64,000 nucleotides of DNA from Dehalococcoidia bacterium (GTDB lineage: Bacteria; Chloroflexota; Dehalococcoidia; Lucifugimonadales; UBA3495). Positions 5,777 through 62,212 of this stretch are shown piece after piece. The translations under genes were made by a program, and so were the position numbers. The stretch covers positions 38,028 to 102,027 of the forward strand of contig CBDBCU010000006.1 in the NCBI GenBank assembly GCA_965203435.1, in the 5' to 3' direction. The notes under the pieces were generated by a model that did no database searches, had not been told where the DNA came from, and was given only the letters and a program-made list of their open reading frames with translations. Numbering within the stretch: position 1 is the stretch's first letter; every line of letters starts with the position of its first letter.

Positions 5777-5800
5777 GGCATTTTGTGCCAGCGCGTCTCG

Positions 5801-5944
5801 AACCGTCATTCCCGCGCAAGTGCCATCCTTACCGCCGCCCCCCTACCGTCATTCCCGCGTAAGCGGGAATCCCGAAATGCCTAATGGGTGGTACGCCGGT
5901 ATTTGGCAACGCCGTTCGGGATTCCCGCTTACGCGGGAATGACG
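5801..5944. repeat. Family-A nested-palindrome element (MITE/REP-like), one half copy plus one full copy
   Basis: Left arm ccctaccgtcattcccgcgtaagcgggaatcccgaa. Right arm ttcgggattcccgcttacgcgggaatgacg, its reverse complement. About 45-nt spacer. Confidence 0.85.
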
Positions 5945-6039
5945 ATTTGCGCGGGCATCATCCCTAACTTGCCAACCCCCGGCCGATTGGGTAACATATT
6001 ACCGTCTCAAAAATTCCCGGCAATGCGGTGGGCAGCCCG

Positions 6040-13933: not shown

Positions 13934-14045
13934 TTCTACCGTCATTCCCGCGTAGGCGGGAATCCCGCAGTGGTTTGCCGAGGATGAGGAATTATAAGGT
14001 AGTACCGTTCGGGATTCCCGCTTGCGTGGGAAGGACGGTGGGAGG
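13934..14045. repeat. Family-A nested-palindrome element, full copy (degenerate right arm)
   Basis: ttctaccgtcattcccgcgtaggcgggaatcccg ... cgggattcccgcttgcgtgggaaggacggtgggagg. Confidence 0.8.
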
Positions 14046-14876: not shown

Positions 14877-15704
14877 ATGATTTTTGGCGCAATCACCAAT
14901 TCCTGGCGCAGTCAGTTGGCTGACCAGAGTTTGACCGAACTTATTACCGAAGCCGCGGCCCGGGGTTCCCGGCACATTGAACTGCGGCAAACCTGCCTCG
15001 GCGATGGCGAAAGCGGCCAGGGCGCGGACTGGCGGCCCAATTTGCCCGCTTTGCAGGCGGTGGCGGATGCCTTTCCCGCCCTGACCTTTGACTTGGCGAT
15101 GGCTTTCCCCTGCTTGACCGTCCCCGCCGACCCGGAGGGCGAGCAGTTTCAGCAGGCTTTGGCCGGGGCTAAAATCGTGGGCCGGGATACGCCGCACTTG
15201 CGGATGGTCGACCCGGTTTCCTTTGACGCCGCGTGGGAAAAAGCCGAGGATTTGCCCCCGGCGGCCTTGGGCGTAGCCGCCTTGGCCCGGGAAGCGGCCC
15301 GCCAGGGCGTCATCCTTTCTATGGAAAACTCCGGCCAGCCCATCGGCAGTATGGCCCTGCTAGTAGAGGAATGTCGCGCCCGAATGACGCCCGAATCCGC
15401 CGCTTATCTGGGCTTGTGTCCCGATCCGGTCAATCAGCTGCGCCGTTTCCCCCAGCGCGACGCCCTGGCCGAGCTGGACGCCTTGCCGCTGGATGTGCTG
15501 AAAATCGTCCACTTCAAGCAGACCCGGGAGGGCAATCCCCACCCCACGGTGGACGACGGCGATTTGGATTGCCGCCAGATGCTGCGGCTACTCGCGGCCA
15601 AAAACTACCAGGGGCCGGCCATAATGGAAATCCCGCCGCATCCGGAAGTCTTTGCCAACCTGACCGCCAGCTATAATTACCTGCGTCAAGGTGTAGATGA
15701 TTAG
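14877..15704 (+). CDS. Sugar phosphate isomerase/epimerase (xylose-isomerase-like TIM barrel)
   Basis: ATG at 14877 with GGAGGTG upstream. N-terminus MIFGAITNSW...HIELRQ and ...IMEIPPHP are typical of the family. Confidence 0.75.
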   Translation: MIFGAITNSWRSQLADQSLTELITEAAARGSRHIELRQTCLGDGESGQGADWRPNLPALQAVADAFPALTFDLAMAFPCLTVPADPEGEQFQQALAGAKIVGRDTPHLRMVDPVSFDAAWEKAEDLPPAALGVAALAREAARQGVILSMENSGQPIGSMALLVEECRARMTPESAAYLGLCPDPVNQLRRFPQRDALAELDALPLDVLKIVHFKQTREGNPHPTVDDGDLDCRQMLRLLAAKNYQGPAIMEIPPHPEVFANLTASYNYLRQGVDD

Positions 15705-15773
15705 AGACTGCCGGCGGCGGCTAGACCGGAGGGCAGTAACCCTCGCCCCCAGCCATGCTATACTGATACCGAC

Positions 15774-17835: not shown

Positions 17836-17867
17836 GCCGGGCAATCGCCTATCCCGGACAACCGGCC

Positions 17868-17962
17868 CACCGTCATTCCCCATCCCCCCACCGTCATTCC
17901 CGCGTAAGCGGGAATCCAGAGTCCGCGGCCTTTGGGGATTCCCGCCTGCGCGGGAATGACGG
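17868..17962. repeat. Family-A element, half copy plus short full copy
   Basis: caccgtcattcccgcgtaagcgggaatccaga ... ggggattcccgcctgcgcgggaatgacgg with only about a 16-nt spacer. Confidence 0.8.
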
Positions 17963-17980
17963 TTTCCAGCCGCCCAGCCC

Positions 17981-22665: not shown

Positions 22666-22715
22666 ACTGCTACTCCTCAAATAGTCGGCTTGGGCCGCGG
22701 TGCGGGGCTAGAGAC

Positions 22716-23030
22716 CTAAAACAACCCCCGCACTGCCGCCAGAATTTCGGCGGTTTTAGCCGGGGTAAGGCGGCCGATGGTGCGCCCGAACCGGCTTTCC
22801 GCCAGCGTCAGCAGCCGGTCGGGATGTACCCAACTGGCATAGTCCAGATGGCCGGCGGACAAATCCGCATCGGCCAGGGCTATCTCCCGACCGCCCGGAT
22901 GCGCCCGGCTGATGCGACACACGATCCAGTCCTCGGCACCCACCCGGGACAAAACCAGGGCCGGGCGGGTTTTCATTCCGCGCAGATTCGTGAAAGGGAA
23001 AGGCACCAGCACAATGTCCCTTACCGCCAT
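22716..23030 (-). CDS. PemK/MazF-like toxin-fold protein, copy 1
   Basis: MAVRDIVLVPFPFTNLRGMKTRPALVLSRVGAEDWIVCRIS is the PemK/MazF N-terminal pattern. Starts 6 nt after the RM enzyme stop. Confidence 0.8.
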   Translation of the reverse strand: MAVRDIVLVPFPFTNLRGMKTRPALVLSRVGAEDWIVCRISRAHPGGREIALADADLSAGHLDYASWVHPDRLLTLAESRFGRTIGRLTPAKTAEILAAVRGLF

Positions 23031-23036
23031 TGCCGG

Positions 23037-26000: not shown

Positions 26001-26216
26001 CATCCGCAGAGCATCCCTGACCGTGCCGTCCGGGATGATGCCCGGCTGGGATTTCAGCTGCGGCACCAGGACCAGTTTATCCCGGTGGTCGCGGCAATAA
26101 GCGTCCAGGCAGCCCTGAAAGGCGGCGCTGATGTTGAGTTCATTGTCCGACCCGCCGAACTCAATCAGATCCCGCAACCGGTCGCGATAGGTTTCAATAT
26201 GCGGGTAAGCAGGCAT
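23037..26216 (-). CDS. Single-chain restriction-modification enzyme, MmeI-like (type IIL/IIG): PD-ExK nuclease + N6-adenine MTase + type-ISP-like TRD
   Basis: N-terminal RD-x9-EAK (PDGTVRDALRMARGYWEAKD). SAM motif I ILDPATGTGTF. Motif IV LGNPPYNAN. Long C-terminal specificity region. ATG at 26214-26216 preferred over the track start at 26255. Confidence 0.8.
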   Translation of the reverse strand: MPAYPHIETYRDRLRDLIEFGGSDNELNISAAFQGCLDAYCRDHRDKLVLVPQLKSQPGIIPDGTVRDALRMARGYWEAKDSHDDLDAEIQRKFNRGYPRDNIVFEDSRTAVLFQNRQEAMRVDMARSRELHRLIRRFLDYELPSIAEFRRAQQQFKADLPTVLANLRAAVDAAAAVNREYQAAAAAFQELCQRTIGPAVSAADVREMLLQHILTKDIFLRVFAEDQFHRENNIARQLDALEQTFFTGNVRRQAIDRLRAYYSVIGRSADEIADYAEKQQFLKGIYESFYQAYNPAAADYLGVVYTPNEVVDFIIRGTDGLLQKHFGRSLADDQVQILDPATGTGTFITSLINYLPPERLEYKYQHEIHANEVAILPYYIANLNIEYSYKERAGHYREFPNLCFVDTLDNLGWQAQGASGAAVQRQGAFNLGALSEENWLRLQGQNAKTISAILGNPPYNANATRWGDGSDNWAYSAVDQRIRETYVDASAAQKTKQYDMYKRFLRWASDRLADDGIIAFITNRAYIDSRQDDGFRKVMPSEFSDLYIVDLGGDIRKKGKVGNVFGIMTGVAVGFFVRRSGRQSAGQIHYYALEDEQSGADKLAALQQLNVADLGFQEIAPDSTGNWLNQTSAGFEKLPLPIASRQAKQDKGGEAEKSLFGLYAMGIATNRDGWVYDFDPANLRAKARFFADTYNDFLDAGDDSYDPVIKWSRDLVNEYNRGKRMVYDDGKLIQTLFRPYVVKHHFADFLMNDVLTRNHFELFGQDLKQPNQVISFCVNHKSFYTLAADKPCDLHFTGDTQCLPLYRYTADGERVSNITDWGLRQFREHYRDESISAEDIFAYTYAVLHDPVYRYDYGADLLREFPRLPFYVHFGNWAAMGRELLALHLGFETAEPYPLERRENRAAAAKGGKAILKADKEKGLIRLDEQTTLAGIPAAAWRYTLGSRSALEWVLDQYKERKPRDPTIAARFHNYRFADHKESVIALLRRVCAVSVGTMAVVDGMAYWRDGQLVVFGDRDQEEWSMMGLAQWFNDPDDPDDDPEYQAWLAALPDIGAGE

Positions 26217-26273
26217 AACACTTCCATAATAGCAAAGGGGGGGATGTGGGGGCAAGGGGGGATTGTTGCCGGC

Positions 26274-26545
26274 TCTTACCGTCCTTCCCGCCCGCCCCCA
26301 CCGTCCTTCCCGCGTAAGCGGGAATCCTGTCCCCCTTACCGTCCTTCCCGTCCCCCGACCGTCCTTCCCGTCCCCCTTACCGTCCTTCCCGTCCCCCTAC
26401 CGTCATTCCCGTCCCCCCGACCGTCATTCCCGCGTAAGCGGGAATCCCCACGGTACTGCCGTATAATGCCGCATCCCCGGCAAGCCACCGCGGGATTCCC
26501 GCTTACGCGGGAATGACGGTAAGGGTGAGGCCGGAATGACCTAGT
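26274..26545. repeat. Family-A cluster: tandem array of about 7 left-arm half units (period about 21-22 nt) ending in one full element
   Basis: accgtccttcccg / accgtcattcccg recurs 7 times. The full element is at about 26420-26520, with arms ccgtcattcccgcgtaagcgggaatcc / ggattcccgcttacgcgggaatgacgg. Confidence 0.85.
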
Positions 26546-26695
26546 GGGGTAGCTGCGGTTTGCCAACATACTTCCTGTCAACCTTTGCCTATCAGCGGCG
26601 GCCGGCCGACTGGCACAAACGGCGGCCGCCGGCTGTGTAGGCATACGGTACTCCAGTTCCAACGGATTCGGTGGAAGTGTTGAGTGGAACGGAGG

Positions 26696-27148
26696 TTACT
26701 TGTTGAAATCAGGGCGGAGTATCCCAATTGCAAAGTACTCAGCCCACTTGATTTCCAAGTTCAGCTCGTCCCTCGTCACCCAACGGATGACGACATTGTC
26801 TTTAATCCATCCTCTGCCGCTAGGAACGCTGGCGACCTTTCCTTCTTTCACCAAGCGACGGGACAAATCGGATGAAGTGGTACCAGCCCAATGGTCTTTC
26901 ATCCGACTTTTGAGACCTACTTCGCTACGGCCAATGTAAAGGAACCTCCCGGTTCGCTTCTCCGAGAACAGATACACCCCGCTTTTATCGGGCATCTGAT
27001 CTACGGTGGGACTGAGGAAAGGGATACTTTCTTTGAGCAGCAGACTCTCTACCGCCGCACGCCCCTCGTCGATGCGATTCTGTATATCCAGAACTGCCCC
27101 CCTCTGCTGATTTGAGATAAACCTCGGTTGCAACATTGCAACCGACAT
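26696..27148 (-). CDS. GIY-YIG nuclease domain protein
   Basis: SGVYLFSEKRTGRFLYIGRSEVGLKSRMKDH plus a downstream E...N (EIKWAEYFAIGILRPDFN). Line GC counts of 47-57% against about 65% in the flanks. Start is ATG 27148 or 27136. Confidence 0.75.
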   Translation of the reverse strand: MSVAMLQPRFISNQQRGAVLDIQNRIDEGRAAVESLLLKESIPFLSPTVDQMPDKSGVYLFSEKRTGRFLYIGRSEVGLKSRMKDHWAGTTSSDLSRRLVKEGKVASVPSGRGWIKDNVVIRWVTRDELNLEIKWAEYFAIGILRPDFNK

Positions 27149-27165
27149 CCGGGTCAAAATACGAC

Positions 27166-27957
27166 TCACGGCGCAAAGCGCACCAAGGCCTGGGCCGCGT
27201 GGCGGCTGATGGCCGCCGTTCCTTGCCCGACCCACTCCTCCAGCAGCTGCCGGTAGGAACAGGATACGAACTTCACTTCGTCGTTGGCGACGGCTTTGGC
27301 AAAGGCCGCAATTTCCTCTTTATGCCGGGTATGATTGTCCGGGTTAATGGGCCGGCCGCCCTCCGGCCAACGGGCCGGCTCGGCGTAGAGGTAAAAGAGG
27401 ATGGGCGTCAACCCGGGATAAGCCCCGTCGTTCTGCACCGCCGTCCGCAGGGCAAAGGCGTGCTTGAAAAGTTGCGCCGTATCCAGCAGGTACGGGTTGC
27501 CCTTGCTTTCCTGCAACTCATCCCGCACCCGCTCATAGCCCTTCATCCGATTGCCCCACACCTTCCGCCAGTAGGATTCGGACAGTTTCTTGACCCGGTT
27601 CGGGCGGAAAGGCTCGAACCGCTTGGATTCCACGCCGATCAGGGTGGTCGGCGTCGTTACCACCGCGTCCAGGACGGGATGCCGCCCACCCCGCAGCCAG
27701 GTTTTGCCCCGGCCCCAGGGAAAGCGCACCTCGGTTTCCAGAGTCACCGCCTCCGCCGGCCAGCGCACATCCGGGCAGCCGGGCAGGGCCGGCAATTCCC
27801 CGGCCCGGTTCAGGAAATACCCGAACACATTGGCCGCCAGAGCCGCCGAGGATTCCGGGCTATCGAACTTCCCGGACTTGATTTCGTTTCCCGGCGCAGC
27901 GTTAAAAATCGCCTCAATTTCCGCGCCCGGTACGCCGGGCAGAAACCGTTCCGTCAT
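27166..27957 (-). CDS. Hypothetical protein, probable PD-(D/E)xK-fold nuclease
   Basis: HPVLDAVVTTPTTLIGVESKRFEP gives a D...E-x-K arrangement. N-terminal SSAALAANVFGYF resembles restriction-endonuclease-like families. Family not identified. Confidence 0.55.
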   Translation of the reverse strand: MTERFLPGVPGAEIEAIFNAAPGNEIKSGKFDSPESSAALAANVFGYFLNRAGELPALPGCPDVRWPAEAVTLETEVRFPWGRGKTWLRGGRHPVLDAVVTTPTTLIGVESKRFEPFRPNRVKKLSESYWRKVWGNRMKGYERVRDELQESKGNPYLLDTAQLFKHAFALRTAVQNDGAYPGLTPILFYLYAEPARWPEGGRPINPDNHTRHKEEIAAFAKAVANDEVKFVSCSYRQLLEEWVGQGTAAISRHAAQALVRFAP

Positions 27958-29687: not shown

Positions 29688-30632
29688 ATGGCAACCGCAG
29701 CGGCTTTTGACACCTACCGGTTCATCCAGAGCCTGATTAAGAGCGGCTTCACCGAGCAGCAGGCCGAAACCCTGGCCTACGAGCAGGTGAACCTGCTCAA
29801 CAGCAACTTGACCACCACCCAGGACTTGGAAATCTCGCGCCTGGCCACGGAAGCCAAGATTGAGGAATCCCGGGCGGCCACGGAAGCCAAAATCGCCGAG
29901 TCCCAGGCGGCCACGGAAGCCAAAATTGAGGAACTGCGCCTCGCCACCGCCAAGGATATTGCGGATTCGCGGGCGGCTATGGAAGCCAAAATCGCGGAAT
30001 CGCAGGCGGCCACCGACGCCAAGATTGAGGAACTGCGCCTCGCCACCGCCAAAGATATTGCGGATTCGCGGGCGGCTATGGAAGCCAAAATCGCGGAATC
30101 GCAGGCTGCTACCGACGCCAAGATTGAGGAACTGCGCCTCGCCACCGCCAAGGATATTGCGGATTCGCGGGCGGCTATGGAAGCCAAAATCGCGGAATCG
30201 CAGGCCGCTACCGACGCCAAAATCGCGGACCTGGACGCCAAAGTCACGGAATTCCGCATCGCTACTGATGCCCGGATTGCGGCGATTCAATCTGACGTGG
30301 AAAAGGCCCGCATCTCCACCGAGGCTAAACTCGAGGAATTCCGCATCGCTACCGATGCCCGGACCGCGGCAATTCAATCTGACGTGGAAAAGGCCCGCAT
30401 CTCCACCGAGGCTAAACTCGAGGAATTCCGCATCGCTACCGATGCCCGGACCGCGGCAATTCAAGCCGACGGGGAAAAGGCCCGCATTTCCACCGAGGCT
30501 AAAATCGAGGAACTTCGCCACTCCACCGAGGCCAAAATCCAATCCGCCAAGTACGACCTGGTCAAGTGGATTTATCCCGCCCTGGTCGCCCAACTCGGGC
30601 TTTACATTGCCCTGACTAAACTCCTTGAGTGA
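29688..30632 (+). CDS. DUF1640-like coiled-coil protein with expanded internal repeats and C-terminal TM helix
   Basis: N-terminus FDTYRFIQSLIKSGFTEQQAETLA is the DUF1640 pattern. Internal 33-aa x3 and 29-aa x3 repeats. C-terminal WIYPALVAQLGLYIAL. Confidence 0.75.
   Translation: MATAAAFDTYRFIQSLIKSGFTEQQAETLAYEQVNLLNSNLTTTQDLEISRLATEAKIEESRAATEAKIAESQAATEAKIEELRLATAKDIADSRAAMEAKIAESQAATDAKIEELRLATAKDIADSRAAMEAKIAESQAATDAKIEELRLATAKDIADSRAAMEAKIAESQAATDAKIADLDAKVTEFRIATDARIAAIQSDVEKARISTEAKLEEFRIATDARTAAIQSDVEKARISTEAKLEEFRIATDARTAAIQADGEKARISTEAKIEELRHSTEAKIQSAKYDLVKWIYPALVAQLGLYIALTKLLE
29928..30224 (+). repeat. Intragenic tandem repeat, 99 bp x 3
   Basis: gaggaactgcgcctcgccaccgcc recurs at 29928, 30027 and 30126, with near-identical units. 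Confidence 0.9.
30249..30509 (+). repeat. Intragenic tandem repeat, 87 bp x 3
   Basis: gaattccgcatcgct recurs at 30249, 30336 and 30423. Confidence 0.9.
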
Positions 30633-33985: not shown

Positions 33986-34061
33986 GGGGCTGTAGCTCAT
34001 CTGGGAGAGCGCTTCAATGGCATTGAAGAGGTAGGGGGTTCGAGTCCCCCCAGCTCCACCA
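33986..34061 (+). tRNA. tRNA-Ala (anticodon GGC), CCA encoded
   Basis: 76-nt cloverleaf folded by hand: acceptor GGGGCUG/CAGCUCC with the G3:U70 Ala identity pair, anticodon loop AUGGCAU, T-arm GGGGG-UUCGAGU-CCCCC. Confidence 0.95.
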
Positions 34062-34090
34062 TTCCCTATCTAAAGGTAAGGGAGTAGTTT

Positions 34091-34861
34091 ATGGCAGAGT
34101 TCCTTACCACGACCGGCGTATCGCACCACCTTGAAGAGGTCATTAAGAGGGCCAATGACCGCCTTATCATAGTCAGCCCTTACCTCAAGCTTAACCGTAG
34201 GGTTAGGGAACTCCTTGAGGAGAGGGATCGCGCCAAGCTGGACATCCGGCTGGTTTATGGCAAGCGAGACCTCCGGCCGGAAGAAATAAACTGGCTGGAG
34301 TCGGTTTCCATCCGCACCAGTTTCCGCGAGAACCTCCACGCCAAGTGCTATATGAACGAGAAGCAGGCCATCCTGACCTCGATGAACCTGTACGAGTTCT
34401 CGCAGCAGAACAACGACGAGATGGGGGTTCTTGTATCTATCGACAAAGACCCCGATCTTTTCGGGGATATTCGTCGCGAGGTGCAACGCATCCTGGAGGG
34501 TAGCGATGAGTTTCGCGTTACGGTTGCCCGCGTCCAGCCCGCCGAAACCGTCGCGCCGCCGGCGATAACCAGGGATACCCCCAGGGCGCCGCAAAGGAAA
34601 CCGGAACCGGCGGTTGGGATACCCAACACCGCCTTCTGCATCCGGGACAAAGCCGTTATACCGCCCAACCCCGGCAAGCCCTACTGTGACCGTTGCTTCG
34701 GGTCCTGGAACCGGTACAAAAACTACGAGTACGAGGAGAAGTGTTGCCACATTTGCGGCAACGAAAACAGCTCCACGATGGCTAAGCCGCTCTGCTTGTC
34801 CTGCTACCGGACTTATAAGGACATCCTAGTCACAGATGATATAGCTGATCTGCCTTTCTAA
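34091..34861 (+). CDS. PLD-like (single HKD) nuclease-family protein with C-terminal Cys-rich zinc ribbon, paralogue 1
   Basis: NLHAKCYMNEKQAILTSMNLYEF carries the HxK...TSxN motif. C-terminus FCIRDK...CDRCFGSWNRY...CHICG...CLSCY. Starts 30 nt after the tRNA. Line GC about 55%. Confidence 0.8.
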   Translation: MAEFLTTTGVSHHLEEVIKRANDRLIIVSPYLKLNRRVRELLEERDRAKLDIRLVYGKRDLRPEEINWLESVSIRTSFRENLHAKCYMNEKQAILTSMNLYEFSQQNNDEMGVLVSIDKDPDLFGDIRREVQRILEGSDEFRVTVARVQPAETVAPPAITRDTPRAPQRKPEPAVGIPNTAFCIRDKAVIPPNPGKPYCDRCFGSWNRYKNYEYEEKCCHICGNENSSTMAKPLCLSCYRTYKDILVTDDIADLPF

Positions 34862-34961
34862 CGAACTGTTAGAGAGGTAGATCATCCGGTAGAGGGCTGA
34901 ACTCGCGCCCCGGCAGAATGATGCCGGGGCGCAACATCCAACGGAGAGGAAACCCTGACCC

Positions 34962-35702
34962 ATGGCCGAATTCTTGAACACCAAAGAAATCGCCGCCGGG
35001 ATCCAGAACATCATCCAGGACGCCCGTGTGGAGATTATCCTCATCAGCCCCTATATCAAGGCTGACCGGCAAATCAGCCAACGTTTGGCGTATCAGGCCA
35101 ATTCCAACCCGGAAGTTCGTATCACCGTAATCTACGGTAAGAAGGAGCAGCCGGAAGTACGGGATTGGCTCAAAGACCTGCCCGCCGTTGAACTCCGTTT
35201 CAGTCCCAACCTTCACGCCAAGTGCTACCTGAACGAGCAGGAAGCTCTGGTGACCTCGATGAATCTCTATGATTTCTCCGAGGCCAACAATGACGAAATG
35301 GGGCTACGGGTATCCGCCAAGGATGACCGGGATCTTTACGGCAAAATCCGTGAGGATGTGCGGCGGATTGCGGCCAATAGTGAAGTTCGCAAGGCCGCAA
35401 CTGTCAAACCCGCCCCAGCAGTCAAAGCCCGTCCCGCGCCCCAACCGACTCCCAGCAAACCGGCCCCGACTTCGGGGATACCTAAAGTCGGCTTCTGCAT
35501 CCGGGACAAAGCGAGCATACCGGCTAACCCCATCAAGCCCTACTGCGAGCGTTGCTACCGGTCCTGGAACCGGTATAAGGACCCCGAGTACGAGGAAAAG
35601 TACTGCCACATCTGCGGCAAGGAAAACGACTCCACGATGGTCAAACCCCTCTGCCTGCCCTGCTACCGGAAGTATAAGGACGATTTCGAGTTTGCCATCT
35701 AA
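34962..35702 (+). CDS. PLD-like (single HKD) nuclease-family protein with C-terminal Cys-rich zinc ribbon, paralogue 2
   Basis: NLHAKCYLNEQEALVTSMNLYDF. C-terminus FCIRDK...CERCYRSWNRY...CHICG...CLPCY. Same architecture as paralogue 1. Confidence 0.8.
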   Translation: MAEFLNTKEIAAGIQNIIQDARVEIILISPYIKADRQISQRLAYQANSNPEVRITVIYGKKEQPEVRDWLKDLPAVELRFSPNLHAKCYLNEQEALVTSMNLYDFSEANNDEMGLRVSAKDDRDLYGKIREDVRRIAANSEVRKAATVKPAPAVKARPAPQPTPSKPAPTSGIPKVGFCIRDKASIPANPIKPYCERCYRSWNRYKDPEYEEKYCHICGKENDSTMVKPLCLPCYRKYKDDFEFAI

Positions 35703-37546: not shown

Positions 37547-37675
37547 ACCGTCATTCCGCCCGTCCCCTACCGTCATTCCCGCGTAAGCGGGAATCCCGAG
37601 CGGTACTGAAAATACCAGACCTTTGCCGTCCTGCCACCGCCGGATTCCCGCTTACGCGGGAATGACGGTAGGGGG
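37547..37675. repeat. Family-A element, half copy plus full copy
   Basis: cctaccgtcattcccgcgtaagcgggaatcccgag ... ccggattcccgcttacgcgggaatgacggtaggg. Confidence 0.85.
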
Positions 37676-37710
37676 CAGGTATATGCCCTTGCCGGCCGCC
37701 TTGCTTGCCC

Positions 37711-38552: not shown

Positions 38553-38566
38553 CCCTATCCCAGCGT

Positions 38567-38632
38567 CCTTACCGTACATTCAACCGTCCTTCCCGTGTAT
38601 TTAACCGTCATTCCCGCGTAAGCGGGAACCCA
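38567..38632. repeat. Family-A left-arm half copies (3, degenerate)
   Basis: cttaccgtacattc / aaccgtccttcccgtg / aaccgtcattcccgcgtaagcgggaaccc. Confidence 0.7.
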
Positions 38633-38693: not shown

Positions 38694-39107
38694 ATGCCCG
38701 AACCGACCTTGAAACTGGAACAGGTGCAGGCGGCGATGGCCGCGATGCTGCGGAAAGCCCAGGAAACCCCGGAGGCCCCGGTAGCCATGGCTATCGTCGA
38801 CGCCACCGGCAACTTGGAAGCCTATGCCAAGATGGACAACCTGCGGCTGTTCAGCCGCCGCCACGCCCTCCGCAAGGCGTACACCGCCGCCGTTATGGGC
38901 CTTAACACCGGCGCCCACGCCGAGCGGCTCCACGGCCAGGGCCGCAGCATCAGCGAACTCGGCGATCCCAACCTGACCCACGGCCAGGGCGGCCTGGTCA
39001 TTATGCAAGACGGCATCATCCTCGGCGGCATCGGCGTCGGCGGCTACCCCAGCGGCCAGTCCGATGAGGATTTGTCCCGGATTGGCCTCGCAGCGATGAA
39101 CCTGTAA
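38694..39107 (+). CDS. GlcG/HbpS-like (DUF336) heme-binding protein
   Basis: AIVDATGNLEAYAKMDN...AYTAA...GGLVIMQDGIILGGIGVGGYPSGQSDE. Confidence 0.8.
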   Translation: MPEPTLKLEQVQAAMAAMLRKAQETPEAPVAMAIVDATGNLEAYAKMDNLRLFSRRHALRKAYTAAVMGLNTGAHAERLHGQGRSISELGDPNLTHGQGGLVIMQDGIILGGIGVGGYPSGQSDEDLSRIGLAAMNL

Positions 39108-39202: not shown

Positions 39203-39447
39203 CCCCCTACCGTCATTCCCGCGCAAGCGGGAATCCAGAGAGGCCGCAACCCCCTACCGTCATTCCCGGCCGTCCCTACCGTCCTTCCCGCGTAAGCGGG
39301 AATCCCGAGAGGCCGCAACCCCCTACCGTCATTCGCGGCCGCACCTACCGTCATTCCCGCGCAAGCGGGAATCCCGAAAGCGCTGCCTTATGCCGCCGCA
39401 TCCTCGGCAAGCAACCTCTGGATTTCCGCTTGCGCGGGAATGACGAT
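39203..39447. repeat. Family-A cluster (about 5 left arms, one right arm)
   Basis: Repeated ccctaccgtcattcccgcgcaagcgggaatcc units, loop GCAA or GTAA. Terminal right arm gatttccgcttgcgcgggaatgacg. Confidence 0.85.
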
Positions 39448-43902: not shown

Positions 43903-43924
43903 AAACTCCCTTGCTTTCCCCCAG

Positions 43925-44092
43925 TCTGACCGGCAATCCCGCAGTGCTGACCGCAACGCTGACCGGCAATCCCCCAGCCCTGACCGGCAAATTACCGCTT
44001 CAACCGTCTTTCCCGCTCCTCAACCGTCCTTCTCGACCTTCGACCGTCAATCCCGCTTTTTAACCGTCATTCCCGCGTAAGCGGGAACCCGG
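43925..44092. repeat. Tandem ctgaccggcaatccc units followed by family-A left-arm half copies
   Basis: Four ctgacc(g)gcaa... units, then caaccgtctttcccg / caaccgtccttctcg / cgaccgtcaatcccg / aaccgtcattcccgcgtaagcgggaaccc. Confidence 0.75.
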
Positions 44093-46713: not shown

Positions 46714-46955
46714 CCTACCTTACCGTCCTTCCCGCGCAAGCGGGAACCCCGACCGTCCTTCCCGCCCTTTTTACCGTCCTTCCCGCGTAAGCGGGAATCC
46801 CGAACGGTGATGCCCTAGGATGCCGCCTTACCGTCCTTCCCGGCCGCCCCCTACCGTCCTTCCCGCGTAAGCGGGAATCCCGAAATGCCTGAGGGATGGT
46901 ATGCCGGTCTTGGCAGTACCGTTCGGGATTCCCGCTTACGCGGGAATGACGGTAA
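46714..46955. repeat. Family-A cluster (4-5 left arms plus one full element)
   Basis: The full element at about 46848-46953 has a spacer closely resembling the 5841-5944 copy (cccgaaatgcct.a...ggta.gccggt.ttggca...ccgttcggg). Confidence 0.85.
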
Positions 46956-52115: not shown

Positions 52116-52297
52116 CCCTTATCCAGAACGGCAGAGGGATCGGCCCGACGAAGCCAGGCAACCGCCCCGGCCGGCGGCTTAACCGCCGCTGACCCGGCAA
52201 GGTGCTAAATCCGGCGTCTCCCCCGTTACAACGGGAGACGAAAGATGAGGGAGTTGCAGCTCAGCGGCGCTTCTCCCCCCGGAGAAGCTTTTTTATT
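52116..52297 (+). promoter_or_regulatory. SAM-I (S-box) riboswitch with intrinsic terminator
   Basis: P1 cccttatc(52116-52123)/gatgaggg(52244-52251). Conserved core GGCAGAGGGAUCGGCCCGACGAAGCCAGGCAACC...AAGGUGCUAAAUCC. Terminator gcttctcc-cccc-ggagaagc + tttttt at 52269-52297. Confidence 0.9.
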
Positions 52298-52331
52298 GCC
52301 CGGAAATTGTCCCCCGGCAGGAAACATTGCC

Positions 52332-53390
52332 TTGAAAGAAATACGCCCCATCCAGTGGGATAACGGCGTCCTGCGTCTCCTCGACCAGACCCGGCTCCCC
52401 TTGGCGCAGCTAACCCTGGAGTTGACCGACTACCGGGAGGCGGTAGCCGCCATCCGGGATATGCAGGTGCGCGGCGCGCCGGCCATCGGCGTTACCGCCG
52501 CCTATGCCGTGGTAATGGCCGCCCGGGAACTGCCGGCGGAAAGCAACGCCGCTTTTCTGGCCGGCCTGCGTCAGGCCGCCGCCGTCATCAACGCCGCCCG
52601 CCCGACCGCCGTCAACCTGGCTTGGGCCGTGCGGCGGATGCTCCGGGTCGCGGAACAGGCCGCCGCCCACCGGGATTTGGTCGAGGTCAAAGCCCGGCTG
52701 GAATCCGAGGCCCGCCTGATTCAGCAGGAGGACGAGGACATCAACCGGCGGATGGGCAACCTGGGCAAAACCCTGCTGCCGGAGGGCGGGGCCGTGTTGA
52801 CCCACTGCAACACCGGCGCTCTGGCGACTTCGGCCTATGGCACGGCCCTGGGCGTCATCCGGGCCGCTTGGGAATCCGGCCGGCGCTTTCAAGTGTTCAA
52901 CACCGAAACCCGTCCCTTTCTGCAAGGGGCGCGGCTGACCGCTTGGGAGTTTCAGCAGCTGGGCATCCCGGCGGCGCTGATTGTGGATTCCGCCGCCGGC
53001 CTGCTGATGCAGCGCGGCGACATCGGCTGCGTTATCACCGGGGCCGATCGCATCGCCGCCAATGGGGATACCGCCAACAAAATCGGCACCTACGCCTTGG
53101 CCGTGCTGGCCCGGGAAAACGACTTGCCCTTTTATGTGGCCGCCCCCACCAGCACCGTGGATTTGAGATTGGCCGCCGGGGCGGAAATCGCCATTGAGGA
53201 ACGGCCGGCCGCCGAAGTTACCCACTTTCAGGGGCAGCCCACGGCTCCGGTCGGCGTAACCGCCCTGAACCCGGCCTTTGATGTAACGCCGCACCGTTAT
53301 ATCAGCGCCATCATCACCGAAAACGCCGTAGCCCGTCCGCCCTATACGGAAAGCCTGCGCCTGGCGGTAAGGGCTGCCGGTCAATCCTGA
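52332..53390 (+). CDS. mtnA: S-methyl-5-thioribose-1-phosphate isomerase
   Basis: IRPIQWDNGVLRLLDQTRLP...VRGAPAIGVTAAYA...TGADRIAANGDTANKIGTY. The TTG at 52332 (AGGAAA 7 nt upstream) is chosen because the ATG at 52245 lies inside riboswitch P1 and upstream of the terminator. Confidence 0.88.
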   Translation: MKEIRPIQWDNGVLRLLDQTRLPLAQLTLELTDYREAVAAIRDMQVRGAPAIGVTAAYAVVMAARELPAESNAAFLAGLRQAAAVINAARPTAVNLAWAVRRMLRVAEQAAAHRDLVEVKARLESEARLIQQEDEDINRRMGNLGKTLLPEGGAVLTHCNTGALATSAYGTALGVIRAAWESGRRFQVFNTETRPFLQGARLTAWEFQQLGIPAALIVDSAAGLLMQRGDIGCVITGADRIAANGDTANKIGTYALAVLARENDLPFYVAAPTSTVDLRLAAGAEIAIEERPAAEVTHFQGQPTAPVGVTALNPAFDVTPHRYISAIITENAVARPPYTESLRLAVRAAGQS

Positions 53391-53438
53391 TTGATGCCCC
53401 GGCCGCCATCATCCGGCCGCCGGATCCAAGGAGCTTAA

Positions 53439-54539
53439 ATGCCGAATCTCGACCAACAAACCCGCCGCCGTATGGCCGCCACCGGGCTGACCGCCCGGGA
53501 CGAATCCCGGGCTTGTCCCGGCTATGTCGTCTATGCCCCCATGAGCGGCCGCGGCGAAGTCTATCTGCTGGACGAGCAGGGCCGGGAAGTCCACCAGTGG
53601 CAGCTGCCCCATCCGCCGGGCTTGTACGGCTATCTGCTGCCCAACGGCCACCTCTTTTACGGCGGCAAAATTCAAGATGACACCTGGCAGCGCTTTCCCT
53701 CCTGGAAACGCTTCAAGGGCGGCGTTATGCTGGAAGTGGACTGGGCGGGCCACATCCTTTGGGAACACTACGATCCGGAACATCACCACGACGCCCGCCG
53801 CACCGACGCCGGCGGCGCTCTCTACCTGACCGTGGCATTGATGGATCCGGCCCAGGCCGCCCAGGTTCAGGGCGGCGTCCCCGGCAGCGATGCCGAAGGG
53901 ATGTGGGCCGATGTCATCGTGGAAGTGGATCAAGACGGCAACCGCATTTGGGAATGGCGCGCCGCCGAACATCTCGACCCGGCTGTCCACACCCTTACCT
54001 TTAACGACCTGCGGGATGAATGGAGCCACGGCAACACAGTGGTGCCCCTGCCCGACAATCGGGTAATGTTCAGTTTCCGCAACATTTCCACCGTCGGCAT
54101 TATTGATAAAAAGTCCGGCGCTATTGTCTGGCAGTTGGGCGACACCGTCCTGGCCCAGCAGCACGACCCCAGCCTGCTGCCCAATGGCAATATCCTGATT
54201 TACGACAACGGCGCCCACCGCCGCCATACCGGATTGCCCTTTTCCCGGGTTATCGAAGTCAACCCGGCTACCAACGAAATCGTCTGGAGCTATCAGGATT
54301 CCCCGCCCTACAACTTTTTCAGCCCCTACATTTCCGGGGCCCGCCGCCTGCCCAACGGCAACACCCTGATCACCGAGGGGATGTTCGGGCGGATGTTTCA
54401 GGTAACGCCGGAGGGGCAGGTGGTCTGGGAATATATCAATCCCTATTTCTATGCGGATGCGGAGGGGCAGGTGGTCAACCGCGTCTTTCGCGCCAATCAT
54501 TACCTGCCGGAACAGATTCCGGCTTTGCCAGGGGTATAA
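53439..54539 (+). CDS. Arylsulfotransferase (ASST)-like beta-propeller protein
   Basis: Repeated LPNG(H/N)-type blades (LLPNGHLFYGG, LLPNGNILIYDNG, RLPNGNTLITEG) and HGNTVVPLPDNRVMFSFRN...GIIDKKSGAIVWQLG. The stop abuts the mtnP ATG. Confidence 0.7.
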   Translation: MPNLDQQTRRRMAATGLTARDESRACPGYVVYAPMSGRGEVYLLDEQGREVHQWQLPHPPGLYGYLLPNGHLFYGGKIQDDTWQRFPSWKRFKGGVMLEVDWAGHILWEHYDPEHHHDARRTDAGGALYLTVALMDPAQAAQVQGGVPGSDAEGMWADVIVEVDQDGNRIWEWRAAEHLDPAVHTLTFNDLRDEWSHGNTVVPLPDNRVMFSFRNISTVGIIDKKSGAIVWQLGDTVLAQQHDPSLLPNGNILIYDNGAHRRHTGLPFSRVIEVNPATNEIVWSYQDSPPYNFFSPYISGARRLPNGNTLITEGMFGRMFQVTPEGQVVWEYINPYFYADAEGQVVNRVFRANHYLPEQIPALPGV

Positions 54540-55409
54540 ATGACCGACCAAACCGCGACGATCGGCGTCATCGGCGGCAGCGGCCTCTACGATTTGGAGG
54601 GCCTGGCCGGTGTCCGCCGCCTGGAACTGAATACCCCCTTTGGCCCGCCCAGCGACAGCATTGTTGTCGGTGAATTGGCCGGTACGCGGGTGGCTTTTCT
54701 GCCGCGTCACGGCCGCGGCCACCGCTTTAATCCCGCCGCTATTCCGGCCCGGGCCAATATCTATGCCCTGAAAACTTTGGGCGTGCAGCGGCTCCTGGCG
54801 GTCAGCGCGGTGGGCAGCCTGAAAGAGGATTTGGCCCCCCTGGATCTGGTGATCCCCGACCAGCTGATTGACCGCACCCGCGGCCGGGTCAGCACCTTTT
54901 TTGACGCCGGCATTGTGGCCCATATCGGTTTTGCCGAACCCTTTTGCGCCGCCAGCAGCGCCGTTATCGCCGCCGCCGCTGCCGAAATCGGCATTAACCG
55001 CCATCTCGAGGGAACGATGGTGGTTATGGAAGGGCCGGCCTTTTCCACTAAAGCCGAATCCTTTATGTACCGTTCCTGGGGCGCGGACATTATCGGGATG
55101 ACCGCCCTGCCGGAGGCCAAGCTGGCCCGGGAAGCCGAAATGTGCTACGCCACTATGGCCTGGATTACCGACTACGATTGCTGGCACGAAGCCGAGGAAA
55201 GCGTGTCCGTGGAAATGGTGGTGCAGAACCTGCTGAAAAATGTCGCCAACTCCCGGGAAATGCTGCGCCGGGTTATCCCCCGCCTCGGGGAGCCGGCCGG
55301 CTGTTCCTGCGGCTCCGCCCTGAAAGACGCCATCATCACCCATCCCGAAGTCATCCCCCCGGAGGTAAAGGAGCCGCTGGCCCCCCTGGTCGGCAAATAC
55401 CTGAACTAA
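54540..55409 (+). CDS. mtnP: S-methyl-5'-thioadenosine phosphorylase
   Basis: IGVIGGSGLYDL...FLPRHGRGHR..PA.IPARANIYALK.LGV...MTALPEAKLAREAEMCYA. Confidence 0.9.
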   Translation: MTDQTATIGVIGGSGLYDLEGLAGVRRLELNTPFGPPSDSIVVGELAGTRVAFLPRHGRGHRFNPAAIPARANIYALKTLGVQRLLAVSAVGSLKEDLAPLDLVIPDQLIDRTRGRVSTFFDAGIVAHIGFAEPFCAASSAVIAAAAAEIGINRHLEGTMVVMEGPAFSTKAESFMYRSWGADIIGMTALPEAKLAREAEMCYATMAWITDYDCWHEAEESVSVEMVVQNLLKNVANSREMLRRVIPRLGEPAGCSCGSALKDAIITHPEVIPPEVKEPLAPLVGKYLN

Positions 55410-55463
55410 TCCCGCCTTTCCGGGTATCTGGAACCGTCAATCTATACAAGGAGGCAACGCAAA

Positions 55464-55823
55464 ATGCCCAGGCAAGAACCCGGCGAACCCTATTACCGGG
55501 TGGATTCCAACGAAGCCCGTTCCATCCTCGACGCCGACACGGCCGGCACGGTGGTGGTGGATGTGCGCCGCGAGGACGAATGGATCACCGGCCATATCGC
55601 CGGGGCCCGGCACATTCCCATTGACGACCTGGCCGACCGCATCGACGAAGTCCCCCGGGACAAGCGGCTACTGTTCATCTGCGCGATGGGCGTCCGCAGC
55701 GGCTTGGCCTGCGAAGTGGCGGCGTCTATGGGCTACGCCACCGAAAACCTTTACAACATCGAGGATGGCACTCCGGCCTGGATTGCCGCCGGCCATCCCA
55801 CTACCTACGGCGCTGACGCCTAG
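55464..55823 (+). CDS. Rhodanese-domain sulfurtransferase
   Basis: VVVDVRREDEWITGHIAGARHIP...LLFICAMGVRSGLA, with the active-site Cys loop. Confidence 0.85.
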   Translation: MPRQEPGEPYYRVDSNEARSILDADTAGTVVVDVRREDEWITGHIAGARHIPIDDLADRIDEVPRDKRLLFICAMGVRSGLACEVAASMGYATENLYNIEDGTPAWIAAGHPTTYGADA

Positions 55824-55877
55824 CCCCCGCCCTTTCCCGGCAAGGGGGCCGGGCCAAATCAAAGCATAAGGAGTTAG

Positions 55878-57152
<1,275 letters not shown>

Positions 57153-57273
57153 CGGCCGGCCGGTCCCGGCCGGTCAAAACCTTGCCCCCAACCGACAAAA
57201 CGGCGCGGCGGGCCGCGGCAAAAACCGGGAAATCCGATCCGGCCCGCCGCCGCGACAATTGGAGGAAGTACCT

Positions 57274-58497
57274 ATGCCCATTCAGTTCATGGTTTCGCCC
57301 AAGTATCTGCTGACTTCCGAGTCGGTGACCGAGGGTCACCCGGACAAGCTGTGCGACCAGATTTCCGATGCGGTGCTGGACGCCGCCCTGGCCGGGGATC
57401 GCGGCAGCCGGGTCGCCTGCGAGACGGTCGCCACCAAGAACCTGATTATGGTTACCGGGGAAATTACCACCGCCTCGGATCTGGACTTTAACGACATCGC
57501 CCGCCAGGTGATGCAGGACATCGGCTATACCGATGTGAAGTACGGCTTGGATGGCAATTCCTGCGGCGTGGTGGCCCATGTCAGCAAGCAGTCCCCGGAC
57601 ATCAGCGGCGGCGTTACCACCGCCCTGGAACACCGGGATGACGATGCGGCCGCCGCTGATGCCCGCCGGGCCACCGGGGCCGGAGACCAGGGGATGATGG
57701 TCGGCTTTGCCTGCAACGAAACCGCGGCCCTGATGCCGCTGACCGTCGACCTCTCCCACCGCCTGGTCGAGCAGTTGGCCGCCGTCCGCAAGGATGGCCT
57801 GCTGCCTTACCTCGGCCCCGACGGGAAATCCCAGGTCACCGTGGAATATCGCCACGGCAAGCCGCACCGGGTCGACGCCGTGGTCATCAGCACCCAGCAC
57901 GATGACCACAGCAATCGGGAAAAGTTCAATCAGCAGCTGCGCCGCGACATCAAGCAGCAGGTCATCAAGCCCATTGCCGGGGACTTGATGGACGAGGACA
58001 CCAACATTTTCGTCAATCCCAGCGGCTGGTTCGTGGTCGGCGGCCCCCAGGGCGATACCGGCTTGACCGGGCGCAAGATTCTGGTGGACACCTATGGCGG
58101 CATTGCCCGCCACGGCGGCGGGGCCTTTTCCGGCAAAGACCCCACGAAAGTCGACCGCTCCGGAGCCTACGCCGCCCGCTATGTCGCCAAAAATCTGGTC
58201 GCCGCCGGCTTGGCCGACCGGGTGGAAGTCATCGTTTCCTACGCTATCGGCGTGGCCGACCCCATTTCCGTCTCCGTGGAAACCTTTGACACCAATCATC
58301 TGGACAACGAGCGCATCGAGGAACTGGTGCGGGATAACTTCGACCTGCGCCCCGGGGCCATCATCGAAGACCTGAACCTGCGCCGGCCCATCTATCGCCG
58401 CACCGCCGCTTACGGCCACTTCGGGCGCAACGACCTGCAACTGCCCTGGGAACAGACCGACAAGGCCGCAATGCTGCGTCAGCAGGCCGGCCTCTAG
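57274..58497 (+). CDS. metK: S-adenosylmethionine synthetase
   Basis: [63 protein letters not shown] upstream of the ATG at 57274. Confidence 0.95.
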
Positions 58498-60868: not shown

Positions 60869-61025
60869 CTCTACCGTCATTCCCGCGTAAGCGGGAATCC
60901 AGAGACGCCTACTGGTAAAGACCGGCCTGCTACCAGTCCGGCATTTCTGGATTCCCGCTTACGCGGGAATGACGGTAGAGAGGGCAGCGGGAATGACGGT
61001 AGGCAATGCGCGGGAAGGACGGCAG
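60869..61025. repeat. Family-A element, perfect full copy plus two extra right-arm fragments
   Basis: 35-nt perfect terminal inverted repeats, ctctaccgtcattcccgcgtaagcgggaatccaga / tctggattcccgcttacgcgggaatgacggtagag, at 60869-60980. Confidence 0.9.
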
Positions 61026-61119: not shown

Positions 61120-61955
61120 CTACCGCCCCCCTATTTCCGGGTGCGGCGCACTTTCTTTTCGCAGGTGGCGCTCCACTGGCGCATACTGATAAGCCGCGAA
61201 GGTGTGGTAGGTTGGGCCGTTCATCCAGATGAACTCGGTGTAGCCCCCCCACAGTTGCTGGGTGTTGCTGATGCTGTGGTCAAAGGGGATGGTGACGACG
61301 TTGCGGGCGGTGCGGAGTAGCCCGGGAACGGCAGTAAGGCCCGCGGCGACGGATTTGGCCTCGTTGGTCCCAGTCGGAAAGCCGACAGAGGGTCGACGGA
61401 GACGGAGAACAGATTGCCGCGGACCATTGTTCAGCGTATGGCAGCGGCTGGCAGTATTGGCACCTATTGAGTAGAGTCTAAGGGTCCCAGGGGCGATGCG
61501 ACCAGGCGGCTCGGGGTCGGCAGGGATTTTGCGCCGCACCGTCTTTACCCGCCGCCGTTCCTCCCGGGGAAACTCAAAAATCCGATCCCGGCTGACCCCG
61601 GTAATGCCCGATTCCCCATCAGTCAGCCAACCCTCTTGGGCGGCGATAAAGCCGCGGAAAATGCCTTGTTCCCCGGAATAGATGGTGTCATCCCGCTCGT
61701 TGCGGTCCTTGCCGGCTTCCCAAGTTTCGGCCTTGGTAAAGGTATCGGACTGGTCGATGCCGCAATAGAGGGTCTTGCCGCGATTTTCGGCCAGGGATTC
61801 CAGGATGGCGGTCGTGCGGTCGGCGTGGGCAAAGGCTTGCCAGTCGGAACAATCCCAGGGGATCGACCGGGCTTGGGACGCGGTTGCCCCCCCCCCCCTA
61901 TTGCGTTCATTAAAAGGAATAGGGCGATGGCGGCTACGATTTTGCGGAGGGACAT
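61120..61955 (-). pseudogene. Secreted hypothetical protein gene interrupted at a 12-nt poly-C/G tract (frameshifted or phase-variable)
   Basis: GGGAGG Shine-Dalgarno sequence and signal peptide MSLRKIVAAIALFLLMNAIGGGG in one frame. From the last G of the run (61887) a second frame is open for about 255 codons to 61120, hand-translated with no stops (ATASQARSIPWDCSDWQAF...). The track shows only its GTG-initiated tail, 61120-61539. Confidence 0.65.
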
Positions 61956-62065: not shown

Positions 62066-62212
62066 TCCCTCTACCGCCCTATCTACCGTCCTTCCCGCCG
62101 CCCCTCTACCGTCATTCCCGCGTAAGCGGGAATCCGGCGGTTGCTTGTCAAGACTGCGGCATTATAAGGCAGTACCGTCGGGATTCCCGCTTACGCGGGA
62201 ATGACGGTAGCG
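62066..62212. repeat. Family-A element, half copies plus full copy
   Basis: ctctaccgtcattcccgcgtaagcgggaatccgg ... cgggattcccgcttacgcgggaatgacggtagcg. Confidence 0.85.

Follow-up and report, generated by a model that had tools for sequence, protein, structure and literature searches.

The stretch analysed here, referred to as the window, comprises 64,000 nt of contig CBDBCU010000006.1 (assembly GCA_965203435.1, Dehalococcoidia bacterium), and its intergenic gaps carry a dispersed family of hairpin repeats whose arms match the dRS3 and NTS repeats described from Neisseria. With a GC content of 62%, a coding fraction of 82% and a GC skew that is negative throughout, the window holds ordinary chromosomal genes (uvrC, rpe, rpsI, rplM and genes for argininosuccinate lyase, ETF and acyl-CoA dehydrogenases), together with a methionine-salvage and S-adenosylmethionine (SAM) cycle cluster led by a SAM riboswitch and one low-GC Type ISP restriction island. 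The closest named homologues of its UvrC, at ~80% identity, come from metagenome-assembled genomes (MAGs) labelled "Chloroflexota bacterium" and "Dehalococcoidia bacterium"; these relatives and the GC content of 62% place the host outside the genus Neisseria, to which the 2007 description of dRS3 was restricted. The repeats were first noticed in a first-pass annotation of the sequence, as a family resembling either miniature inverted-repeat transposable elements (MITEs) or repetitive extragenic palindromes (REPs). The dispersed, intergenic, REP-like character is borne out by our analysis. We consider it likely, with a probability of roughly three in four, that these are NTS or Ssn-related-motif hairpin repeats of the dRS3 type, residing in an uncultured member of the Chloroflexota and arranged like the mosaic elements of Neisseria or like REPINs.

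Arms, doublets and half-sites

All copies share a palindromic 20-nt core, ATTCCCGC-N4-GCGGGAAT, which occurs 27 times in the window when up to two mismatches are allowed (about 0.42 arms per kb), against an expectation of 0.06; none of 100 dinucleotide shuffles reached 27. The core is embedded in an oriented arm of about 30 nt, ACCGTC-[A/C]TTCCCGC-GYAA-GCGGGAAT-CC, and beyond its terminal CC.G only a loose C-rich tract can be recognised. Seventeen arms read forward on the + strand (L arms, ACCGTC[A/C]TTCCCGC-GYAA-GCGGGAATCC, in short ACCGTCMTTCCCGC...GCGGGAATCC), and ten are the reverse complement (R arms). Conservation is not confined to the palindrome: the six positions of ACCGTC, which usually appears as TACCGTC, are kept in 27, 25, 27, 27, 27 and 27 of the 27 arms, and both C bases 3' of the stem are present in every one. 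The copy at 60869-60980 singled out by the first-pass annotation is indeed there, with a perfect 35-nt inverted repeat; against the arm length of 30-35 nt assigned to the family, the part conserved among copies (ACCGTC, the 20-nt palindrome and CC.G) measures about 30 nt.

Both of the folds envisaged at the outset, nested 8-bp hairpins and one long hairpin, are predicted to be stable in single-stranded DNA (ssDNA). A single arm folds into an 8-bp hairpin at -9 kcal/mol (z -5), while an inverted pair folds into one long hairpin at -32 to -54 kcal/mol (z -8 to -16), the doublet at 60869-60980 reaching -53.5 kcal/mol (z -15.9). In a set of 389 arms from many genomes, gathered with the inner three stem pairs left free, these three pairs are fully paired in 379 arms and fall into at least six compensatory types (CGC/GCG, CAC/GTG, AGC/GCT, GGC/GCC, TGC/GCA and CGT/ACG). 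Because most of these loci had originally been fetched with a CGC...GCG pattern, only the minority stem types count as unbiased evidence; such compensatory variants argue that the hairpin is under selection. The loops of the window arms, read in the forward sense, are GTAA (20), GCAA (5), GTAG (1) and GCAG (1), so that the GNRA-type loops pointed out earlier are real in 25 of 27 arms. Their reading as RNA tetraloops fails, however, because the wider family, in which GCAG (109), GAAA (86) and GAAG (67) are the commonest loops, keeps only G-N-A-N, and because the characterised protein partner of such arms acts on ssDNA and not on RNA (PMC11893778).

Twenty of the arms form ten inverted L-R pairs, hereafter doublets, with spacers of 49-52 nt and in one case of 22 nt; for each R arm there is an L arm upstream, at a distance of 69-72 nt between their starts, except for one pair that is 42 nt apart. 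The seven other arms (26306, 38610, 39215, 39284, 44069, 46728 and 46779) are unpaired or in tandem, and all are L arms on the + strand irrespective of the direction of the neighbouring genes. The layout of terminal inverted repeats proposed by the first-pass annotation describes the ten doublets but not these 7 of 27 arms, nor the half-site arrays that flank many arms. Concerning the strand of the unpaired arms, the 7/7 bias represents only about 5 independent loci, and an arm at 17913(-) in a related genome (L147, see below) may be an exception; if the bias is taken together with the negative GC skew, one may guess that the strand open to cleavage is kept from serving as lagging-strand template.

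Spacers are related between copies and in both orientations, as had been claimed, with identities to be compared with 50 +/- 8% for shuffled spacers. In family A, spacer 5851 is 82% identical to 46859, and the reverse complement of 13232 is 80% identical to 46859 and 74% to 5851; spacer 60879 is a looser member. Family B unites 13944 and 62114 with the reverse complement of 26426 (76-82% identity) and has 39353 as a looser member. Since spacer families are shared between copies in both orientations, it is the entire arm-spacer-arm unit that is copied, in either direction. Family-B spacers contain TATAAT, though no promoter-like pair was found inside the three of four family-B elements that were scanned (13944, 26426 and 39353).

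A further component is a 13-nt half-site, ACCGTCMTTCCCG, which consists of the 5' flank and the 5' half of the stem and recurs with a period of 20-21 nt, always on the outer side of an arm; alone it cannot form a hairpin. Tandem Repeats Finder reports arrays of 20-21-nt units, mostly of the C variant ACCGTCCTTCCCG, at 26325-26432 (5.2 copies), 38564-38616 and 43998-44076, and a 69-nt tandem array at 39204-39377. All 12 loci listed by the first-pass annotation hold arms and are intergenic (Table 1). Its account of their placement, at gene 3' ends and in convergent and divergent gaps, is also correct: 10 of the 12 adjoin one or more gene 3' ends, and two (13221 and 37547) lie between divergent gene starts. 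Two details of the list need amendment. The left part of the locus given as 43925-44092 (43917-43990) is a different, 21-nt repeat, and a variant doublet at 14064-14152, directly after the one at 13934-14045, had escaped notice. The arms of the latter keep the frame GTCATTCC...GGAATC with a different inner stem, and may represent the motif of a second Ssn specificity.

Table 1. Repeat loci of the window. L and R, forward and reverse arms; L146 and L147, loci of related genomes compared in the text.
Position	Content	Spacer	Strand	Remarks
5777..5952	Truncated arm 5802-5820; doublet (L 5845-5872, R 5919-5946)	Family A		Directly 3' of the uvrC stop; absent from L146
13215..13331	Doublet (L 13226-13253, R 13299-13326)	Family A, reversed		Between divergent genes
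13934..14045	Doublet (L 13938-13965, R 14012-14039)	Family B		13 nt after PaREP1-like gene
14064-14089, 14127-14152	Variant SRM-like doublet, arms GTCATTCCGAGCGTAGCCGAGGAATC		+, -	2 matches, 0 expected; absent from L147
17866..17963	Half-site 17869-17881; short doublet (L 17890-17917, R 17936-17963)	22 nt		Between convergent genes
26274..26545	Half-site 26278; L arm 26300-26327; half-site array 26325-26432			Largest array
within 26274..26545	Doublet (L 26420-26447, R 26493-26520)	Family B, reversed		
37547..37675	Half-site; doublet (L 37569-37596, R 37642-37669)			Divergent promoter region
38562..38632	Half-sites 38562, 38583; single forward arm 38604-38631		+	
39203..39447	69-nt tandem array: L arms 39209, 39278, 39347, half-sites between; closing R arm 39420-39447			
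43998..44092	20-nt half-site array (4 copies), then single forward arm 44063-44090		+	
46714..46955	Single forward arms 46722-46749, 46773-46800; half-sites; doublet (L 46853-46880, R 46926-46953)	Family A		
60869..61025	Doublet, perfect 35-nt inverted repeat 60869-60903 vs 60946-60980; cores 60879, 60951			Best copy
60988-61000, 61011-61023	Half-sites of the 60869..61025 locus		-	
62066..62212	Half-site 62085; doublet (L 62108-62135, R 62181-62208)	Family B		
1783, 2279(-), 9276, 9372, 11555, 11655, 11721(-), 32423, 42302(-), 48893, 61090, 62229(-)	Second dispersed repeat, CTCATCCTGAACTTGTTGAAGGATG			Up to 3 mismatches

Relation to dRS3, NTS and ssnA

Two published descriptions are relevant to these arms. 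The Neisseria repeat dRS3, with the consensus ATTCCC-N8-GGGAAT, flanks the cassettes of Neisseria's intergenic mosaic elements (NIMEs), described in 2007 as absent outside that genus (Bentley et al. 2007, PMC1797815). Half of the dRS3 copies have since been recognised as a longer, oriented 28-nt motif, NTS, CGTCATTCCCGCGMAVGCGGGAATCYRG, which is bound by SsnA, a 94-aa single-domain GIY-YIG protein (cd10448) that cuts just upstream of the motif and acts on ssDNA only and on the forward strand only; the mapped determinants are the upstream GTC for cleavage and the C after the palindrome for binding (Chenal et al., Nat Commun 2025, PMC11893778). In N. meningitidis the ssnA/NTS system lowers transformation by NTS-containing DNA; across phyla ssnA genes are bracketed by Ssn-related motifs (SRMs), and in a screen of all N. 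meningitidis protein homologues ssnA alone was spatially linked to NTS across bacteria (PMC11893778).

Measured against these descriptions, 16 cores of the window match the dRS3 consensus exactly. One arm (39211-39238) is an exact NTS, 8 arms fall within one mismatch of CGTCATTCCCGCGMAVGCGGGAATCYRG (the search criterion of PMC11893778), 19 within two and 27 within three, the recurrent mismatch being at loop position 2, where A/C gives way to T. The degenerate SRM pattern HGTCWYN(0-2)YYVSBRHN(0-5)WNVSBRGN(0-2)RNCYNB has 19 matches, compared with a mean of 0.33 and a maximum of 2 in 30 first-order Markov simulations of the window, and both mapped SsnA determinants, the GTC upstream and the C after the stem, are invariant in 27/27 arms. 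By homology with the Neisseria system, the arm would thus be the binding site of a putative SsnA-family nuclease. A scan of the window against Rfam gave no match at the elements; a further Rfam comparison brought up nothing but generic miRNA models with long hairpins, whose 57 bits fall far short of the gathering threshold (168). The first-pass annotation had named a match to a described repeat family as the finding that would count against its proposal, and in substance such a match exists in dRS3/NTS. Because the arms match these published repeats, the window provides a new host for a known system rather than a new kind of element; dRS3 and NIMEs have been known for over two decades (Bentley et al. 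2007), and the NTS/SRM-Ssn system, published in 2025, is reported to occur widely across phyla. New here are a Chloroflexota host with a high density of repeats, regular doublets with spacer families, half-site arrays and comparative evidence of turnover.

The resemblance to the NTS/SsnA system extends over the arm sequence, the hairpin, the orientation given by the upstream GTC and downstream C, and the clustered, intergenic occurrence, and the inverted pairs of the window share the geometry of an arm-ssnA-arm unit. The differences are nevertheless several. The host phylum goes unmentioned in the main text of PMC11893778, which names mainly Pseudomonadati; most loops read GTAA, which the Neisseria consensus G-M-A-V does not cover; the 5' flank is conserved further out, to ACCGTC; and neither the doublets with regular 49-52-nt spacers, nor the spacer families, nor the 20-21-nt half-site arrays are described in that paper. 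In comparison with NIMEs, the window arms likewise flank short cassettes (22-52-nt spacers) of at least two families, and the copy number within arrays likewise varies between related genomes. Unlike NIMEs, the arrays do not exceed 4 arms, the spacers are mostly of a uniform 49-52 nt instead of 19-214 bp in more than 100 families, and the genome GC is 62% against 52%. Conservation of spacers across phyla is not supported, as the matches in Sphingomonas and Neisseria, with ~72% identity along the entire doublet, could stem from the arms alone.

The published link between ssnA and NTS was reproduced. In tblastn searches with a GIY-YIG consensus, N. gonorrhoeae, Photobacterium sp. GJ3 and Azospirillum lipoferum each yielded one ssnA with adjoining NTS arms, the first two with at least 40 arm matches each. 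The A. lipoferum gene has on either side an L-R doublet (spaced 59-60 nt) of the form also seen in the window. Among 120 stretches of a viral collection fetched solely for containing an arm, ssnA stands directly beside arms in 6. Looking outward from ssnA, an SRM lies within 400 nt in 17 of 33 loci, and on both sides in 11 of these 17; the commonest arrangement places a forward arm ~59 nt before the gene and a reverse arm ~290-300 nt after the gene start. The linkage includes the phylum of our host. The top matches of an Ssn profile search were P0121, a protein labelled "Chloroflexi bacterium" that shares 67% identity with SsnA of the gonococcus, and a protein labelled "Anaerolineae". Around the gene for P0121 (Chloroflexota MAG GCA_016716065.1, L140 1496-1786), two arms lie upstream (1358 and 1436) and four downstream (1807, 1868, 1965 and 1997). 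The second gene, in the region 9600-10700 of L142 (Anaerolineae MAG GCA_020433805.1), has an 80-nt tandem repeat on either side. In this 80-nt unit an NTS variant whose loop has 9 nt (ATTCCCGC-ATGCTTTTA-GCGGGAAT) is joined by a further hairpin (GGGTGCCCGATAAA..TTCGGGCAC), and L142 has another ssnA copy 4 kb away.

Candidates for a partner inside the window were each turned down. A small GIY-YIG open reading frame (ORF) at 26696-27235(-), beside the largest array, has only sub-threshold GIY_YIG_2 and UvrC/Cho-type matches, gives no tblastn match in the NTS-rich Neisseria and Photobacterium records, scores a probability of 5% against the Ssn profile in hhalign and is part of a low-GC defence island. 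The ORFs enclosed between elements proved to be PaREP1-like (13378-13920), HbpS-like (38694-39107) and an apparently frameshifted secreted-protein gene (61120-61955).

These searches bring us to the points that weigh against identification of the repeats with an Ssn system. The cognate ssnA of this lineage was not located: tblastn and a motif search detected no homologue across the 64 kb of the window, three loci of relatives (22 kb each) and a contig of the same lineage (L148), and two ssnA protein searches contained no match recognised as this lineage among the best 120 of more than 8000, a negative that is weak because only those 120 were listed. As context, ssnA is lacking in 19% of genomes with more than 200 SRMs (PMC11893778). 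In addition, the half-site arrays and the doublet spacer families, for which the Neisseria system offers no described counterpart, may have arisen by another process, such as replication slippage or homologous recombination. A composite pattern of the arm with the motif REK..K.W, run against genome contigs, retrieved one gammaproteobacterial MAG. The lineage-specific arm retrieved from viral contigs one of the same lineage (L148), without ssnA, and from metagenome contigs 11 short unrelated ones with GC from 42% to 69%, which share the arm only (33-40 nt, at 97-100% identity).

Filled and empty sites in relatives, and the surroundings of the elements

Loci of related genomes corresponding to window positions 3287-15935 were available for comparison: L146 and L147, with 92-96% nucleotide identity, and L001, with about 85%. 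After uvrC, L146 is precisely empty, reading ...CCTTGTAA|GGGCATCATCC at 11908/11909 where the window holds a 176-nt block (5777-5952). At the same place, L147 (11980-12077) has the window's flanks, the truncated arm and both arms, enclosing a ~49-nt spacer of family B where the window has family A (5851-5940); the cassette has been swapped between conserved arms. The site of the doublet 13215-13330 is precisely empty in both L146 and L147, and the region 13927-14182, with its NTS doublet and variant doublet, is missing from L147. After the gene for an AP-endonuclease-like protein the situation is reversed, an L arm plus L-R triple being present in L146 and L147 where the window has just 27 nt (15705-15732). 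The two close relatives also differ from each other, by a 200-nt element against ACTCC at one site, and at another by a short doublet in L146, its spacer 22 nt long, in place of which L147 has, between the shared outer arms, two full doublets and a family-2 repeat; arrays have collapsed between arms in these relatives. No target-site duplication recurs in the five filled/empty comparisons, the sole candidate being an ambiguous 5-nt GGCAT at the uvrC site.

The short-spacer type seen at 17866..17963 also occurs in L146, at 9297. The more distant L001 has elements at other sites and with other stems, for example ATTCCCACGAAAGTGGGAAT, a variant that is found in N. gonorrhoeae too, and the same-lineage contig L148, from IMG/VR, carries in an unrelated context a doublet 90% identical over 130 nt to 37547-37676. 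Such presence and absence of copies at orthologous sites in close relatives shows, as the first-pass annotation had argued, that the elements are not terminators evolved independently of one another. A gene of the phage-integrase family lies near uvrC in the relatives only.

As for the surroundings of the repeats, the largest NTS array sits within the low-GC, defence-type island at 21403-27957. The island contains a Type ISP restriction-modification gene (23037-26216), a second ORF (21403-22665) that represents only the C-terminal specificity domain of a Type ISP protein and shares 75-79% DNA repeats with that gene, a MazF toxin (22716-23030), a 263-aa gene of no assigned function and the UvrC/Cho-like GIY-YIG ORF already mentioned, which is not an Ssn. 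NTS doublets also stand on both sides of a 1.5-kb region around 61120-61955(-), where two adjoining ORFs with a signal-peptide-like start resemble one gene split by frameshifts; a C12 homopolymer tract is situated near its 5' end (61886-61899), and phase variation or an error in the assembly may lie behind the split. Another intergenic repeat dispersed through the window, CTCATCCTGAACTTGTTGAAGGATG, is present in 12 copies when up to three mismatches are allowed, against 0 expected; it often adjoins NTS loci, gives rise to the spurious peptide FNKFRMSG and is present in L147 and L148 too. It resembles the widespread 'FDKLRMSG / LSLSK' repeat of many genomes. Elsewhere in the window, a SAM (S-box) riboswitch (71 bits) in the region 52116-58497 precedes an IF-2B/MtnA-like gene followed by genes for an arylsulfotransferase-like protein, an MTAP-like phosphorylase, a rhodanese, AdoHcy hydrolase and SAM synthetase. 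A coiled-coil/apolipoprotein-like ORF (29688-30632) contains in-frame tandem repeats of 33 nt (at least 7 copies) and 87 nt (3 copies) at 29837-30533, and in the stretch 33986-35702 two PLD-like paralogues in tandem (34091-34861 and 34962-35702), with 70-80% DNA identity, come after a tRNA gene.

Competing explanations, proposed mechanism and implications

How far can the same observations be accommodated by other kinds of element? The architecture is certainly that of REPINs, with short extragenic palindromes inverted about 70 nt apart and folding into one long hairpin, mosaic arrays like the BIMEs of E. coli and Pseudomonas, filled and empty sites without target-site duplication and a presumed action on ssDNA. 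A RAYT, that is, a domesticated Y1 HUH transposase of the IS200/IS605 type encoded once in the genome, could therefore be imagined as the mobilising enzyme. We regard this as improbable, considering that the sequence is unrelated to those REPs and that the arm is an NTS, whose sole linked gene in the published screen (PMC11893778), by a link that our searches reproduced, encodes a GIY-YIG nuclease and not an HUH enzyme. No RAYT was seen in the window, where domain scans of roughly 60 genes found no Y1_Tnp match, nor any transposase, IS110 or integrase domain; the transposase or RAYT with matching ends that the first-pass annotation suggested looking for is thus not among the window genes. The same scans bear on its suggestion of MITEs, internally deleted copies of insertion sequences (IS) moved in trans by a DDE transposase acting on their terminal inverted repeats. 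Inverted repeats of 30-37 nt, a small size of about 100-150 bp, dispersal between genes in both orientations and insertion polymorphism would suit such elements. Correia elements, one well-known kind, have fixed ends and duplicate a TA target. In the window, by contrast, each inverted repeat is a hairpin in its own right, and variable half-site arrays prolong the elements, whose ends are ragged. Arms commonly stand alone or in L-L-L-R arrays, no target-site duplication is consistent and no IS bears the element ends, so that we do not uphold the MITE label and rate this explanation the least probable of those discussed here.

An action at the RNA level, as terminators, attenuators or hairpins stabilising the 3' ends of mRNA with GNRA tetraloops, would account for the proximity of gene 3' ends at 10 of 12 loci, for the high stability of the hairpins and for the loops prevailing in the window, and REPs of E. 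coli are known to stabilise upstream mRNA. As the nature of the elements, we nevertheless judge it unlikely. No R arm is followed by a U-tract (the following sequences are GACGGTAG..., GACGGTGG... and similar), no intrinsic-terminator-like site lies inside the nine element loci scanned, and the loci 13221 and 37547 are situated between divergent gene starts; moreover, the loops of the family at large (GCAG, GAAA, GAAG) do not as a set conform to GNRA, an RNA hairpin leaves the conserved non-palindromic flanks (ACCGTC and CC) unexplained, and the Rfam matches are far below threshold. A terminating or mRNA-stabilising effect is possible as a by-product of the elements. Finally, the arms might be target or attachment sites of an IS110-family or phage recombinase, with arrays built by repeated site-specific recombination. 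There is a precedent in Neisseria, where dRS3 is the reported integration target of the Nf/MDA filamentous phage (PMC1797815), and the spacer swap between identical arms and the collapse of arrays do resemble arm-to-arm recombination. As none of the 12 loci adjoins a recombinase or prophage, however, and homologous recombination of 30-nt arms or Ssn-induced breaks would give equal patterns, we hold this to be very unlikely as an explanation in its own right; it is compatible with the Ssn reading and does not exclude it.

We return, then, to the identification of the repeats as sites of an Ssn system, and consider how they might work. The scheme starts directly from the motif identity, the conserved determinants, the signature of selection on the hairpin, the linkage of ssnA with arms elsewhere, including in Chloroflexota, and the polymorphism between relatives. 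The arms would be SsnA-type hairpin sites that fold when the DNA becomes single-stranded. Their partner would be a GIY-YIG single-strand nuclease of ~95 aa, a member of the SsnA family (cd10448) whose gene lies outside the window, binding the arm and cutting just upstream of the hairpin; by this reasoning the lineage would encode an Ssn that acts on the arms and may drive their spread. The doublets look like miniature, gene-less derivatives of the arm-ssnA-arm unit because the inward-facing orientation of their arms equals that of the unit. Gain, loss, spacer exchange and the growth or collapse of arrays would all take place at the arms, caused perhaps by Ssn-made nicks in transiently single-stranded DNA, or by recombination between the 30-nt arms. 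One may go a step further and suppose that the doublets are non-autonomous miniatures moved or copied by SsnA itself through ssDNA intermediates, which would amount to a transposition-like GIY-YIG mechanism parallel to that of RAYT and REPIN; this last extension we offer only tentatively, and think it more doubtful than probable. As to physiology, extrapolation from Neisseria would suggest that the system modulates recombination of incoming or replicating ssDNA.

A practical consequence concerns annotation, since the repeats create spurious ORFs (PSFPRKRESR, RLRGNDG) and masking them is advisable. Irrespective of the details of the mechanism, the dRS3/NTS repeat, long treated as a hallmark of Neisseria, is extended here to a free-living lineage of the Chloroflexota. 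The comparison of relatives contributes evidence absent from the 2025 paper, namely clean gain and loss, cassette swaps between arms and a doublet geometry matching arm-ssnA-arm, and allows the suggestion, already in print, of a domesticated or mobile GIY-YIG element to be put to the test in long-read MAGs from the environment. If movement driven by SsnA should prove true, the 97-100% identity of arms across contigs with GC from 42% to 69% would mean that the module spreads horizontally between phyla.

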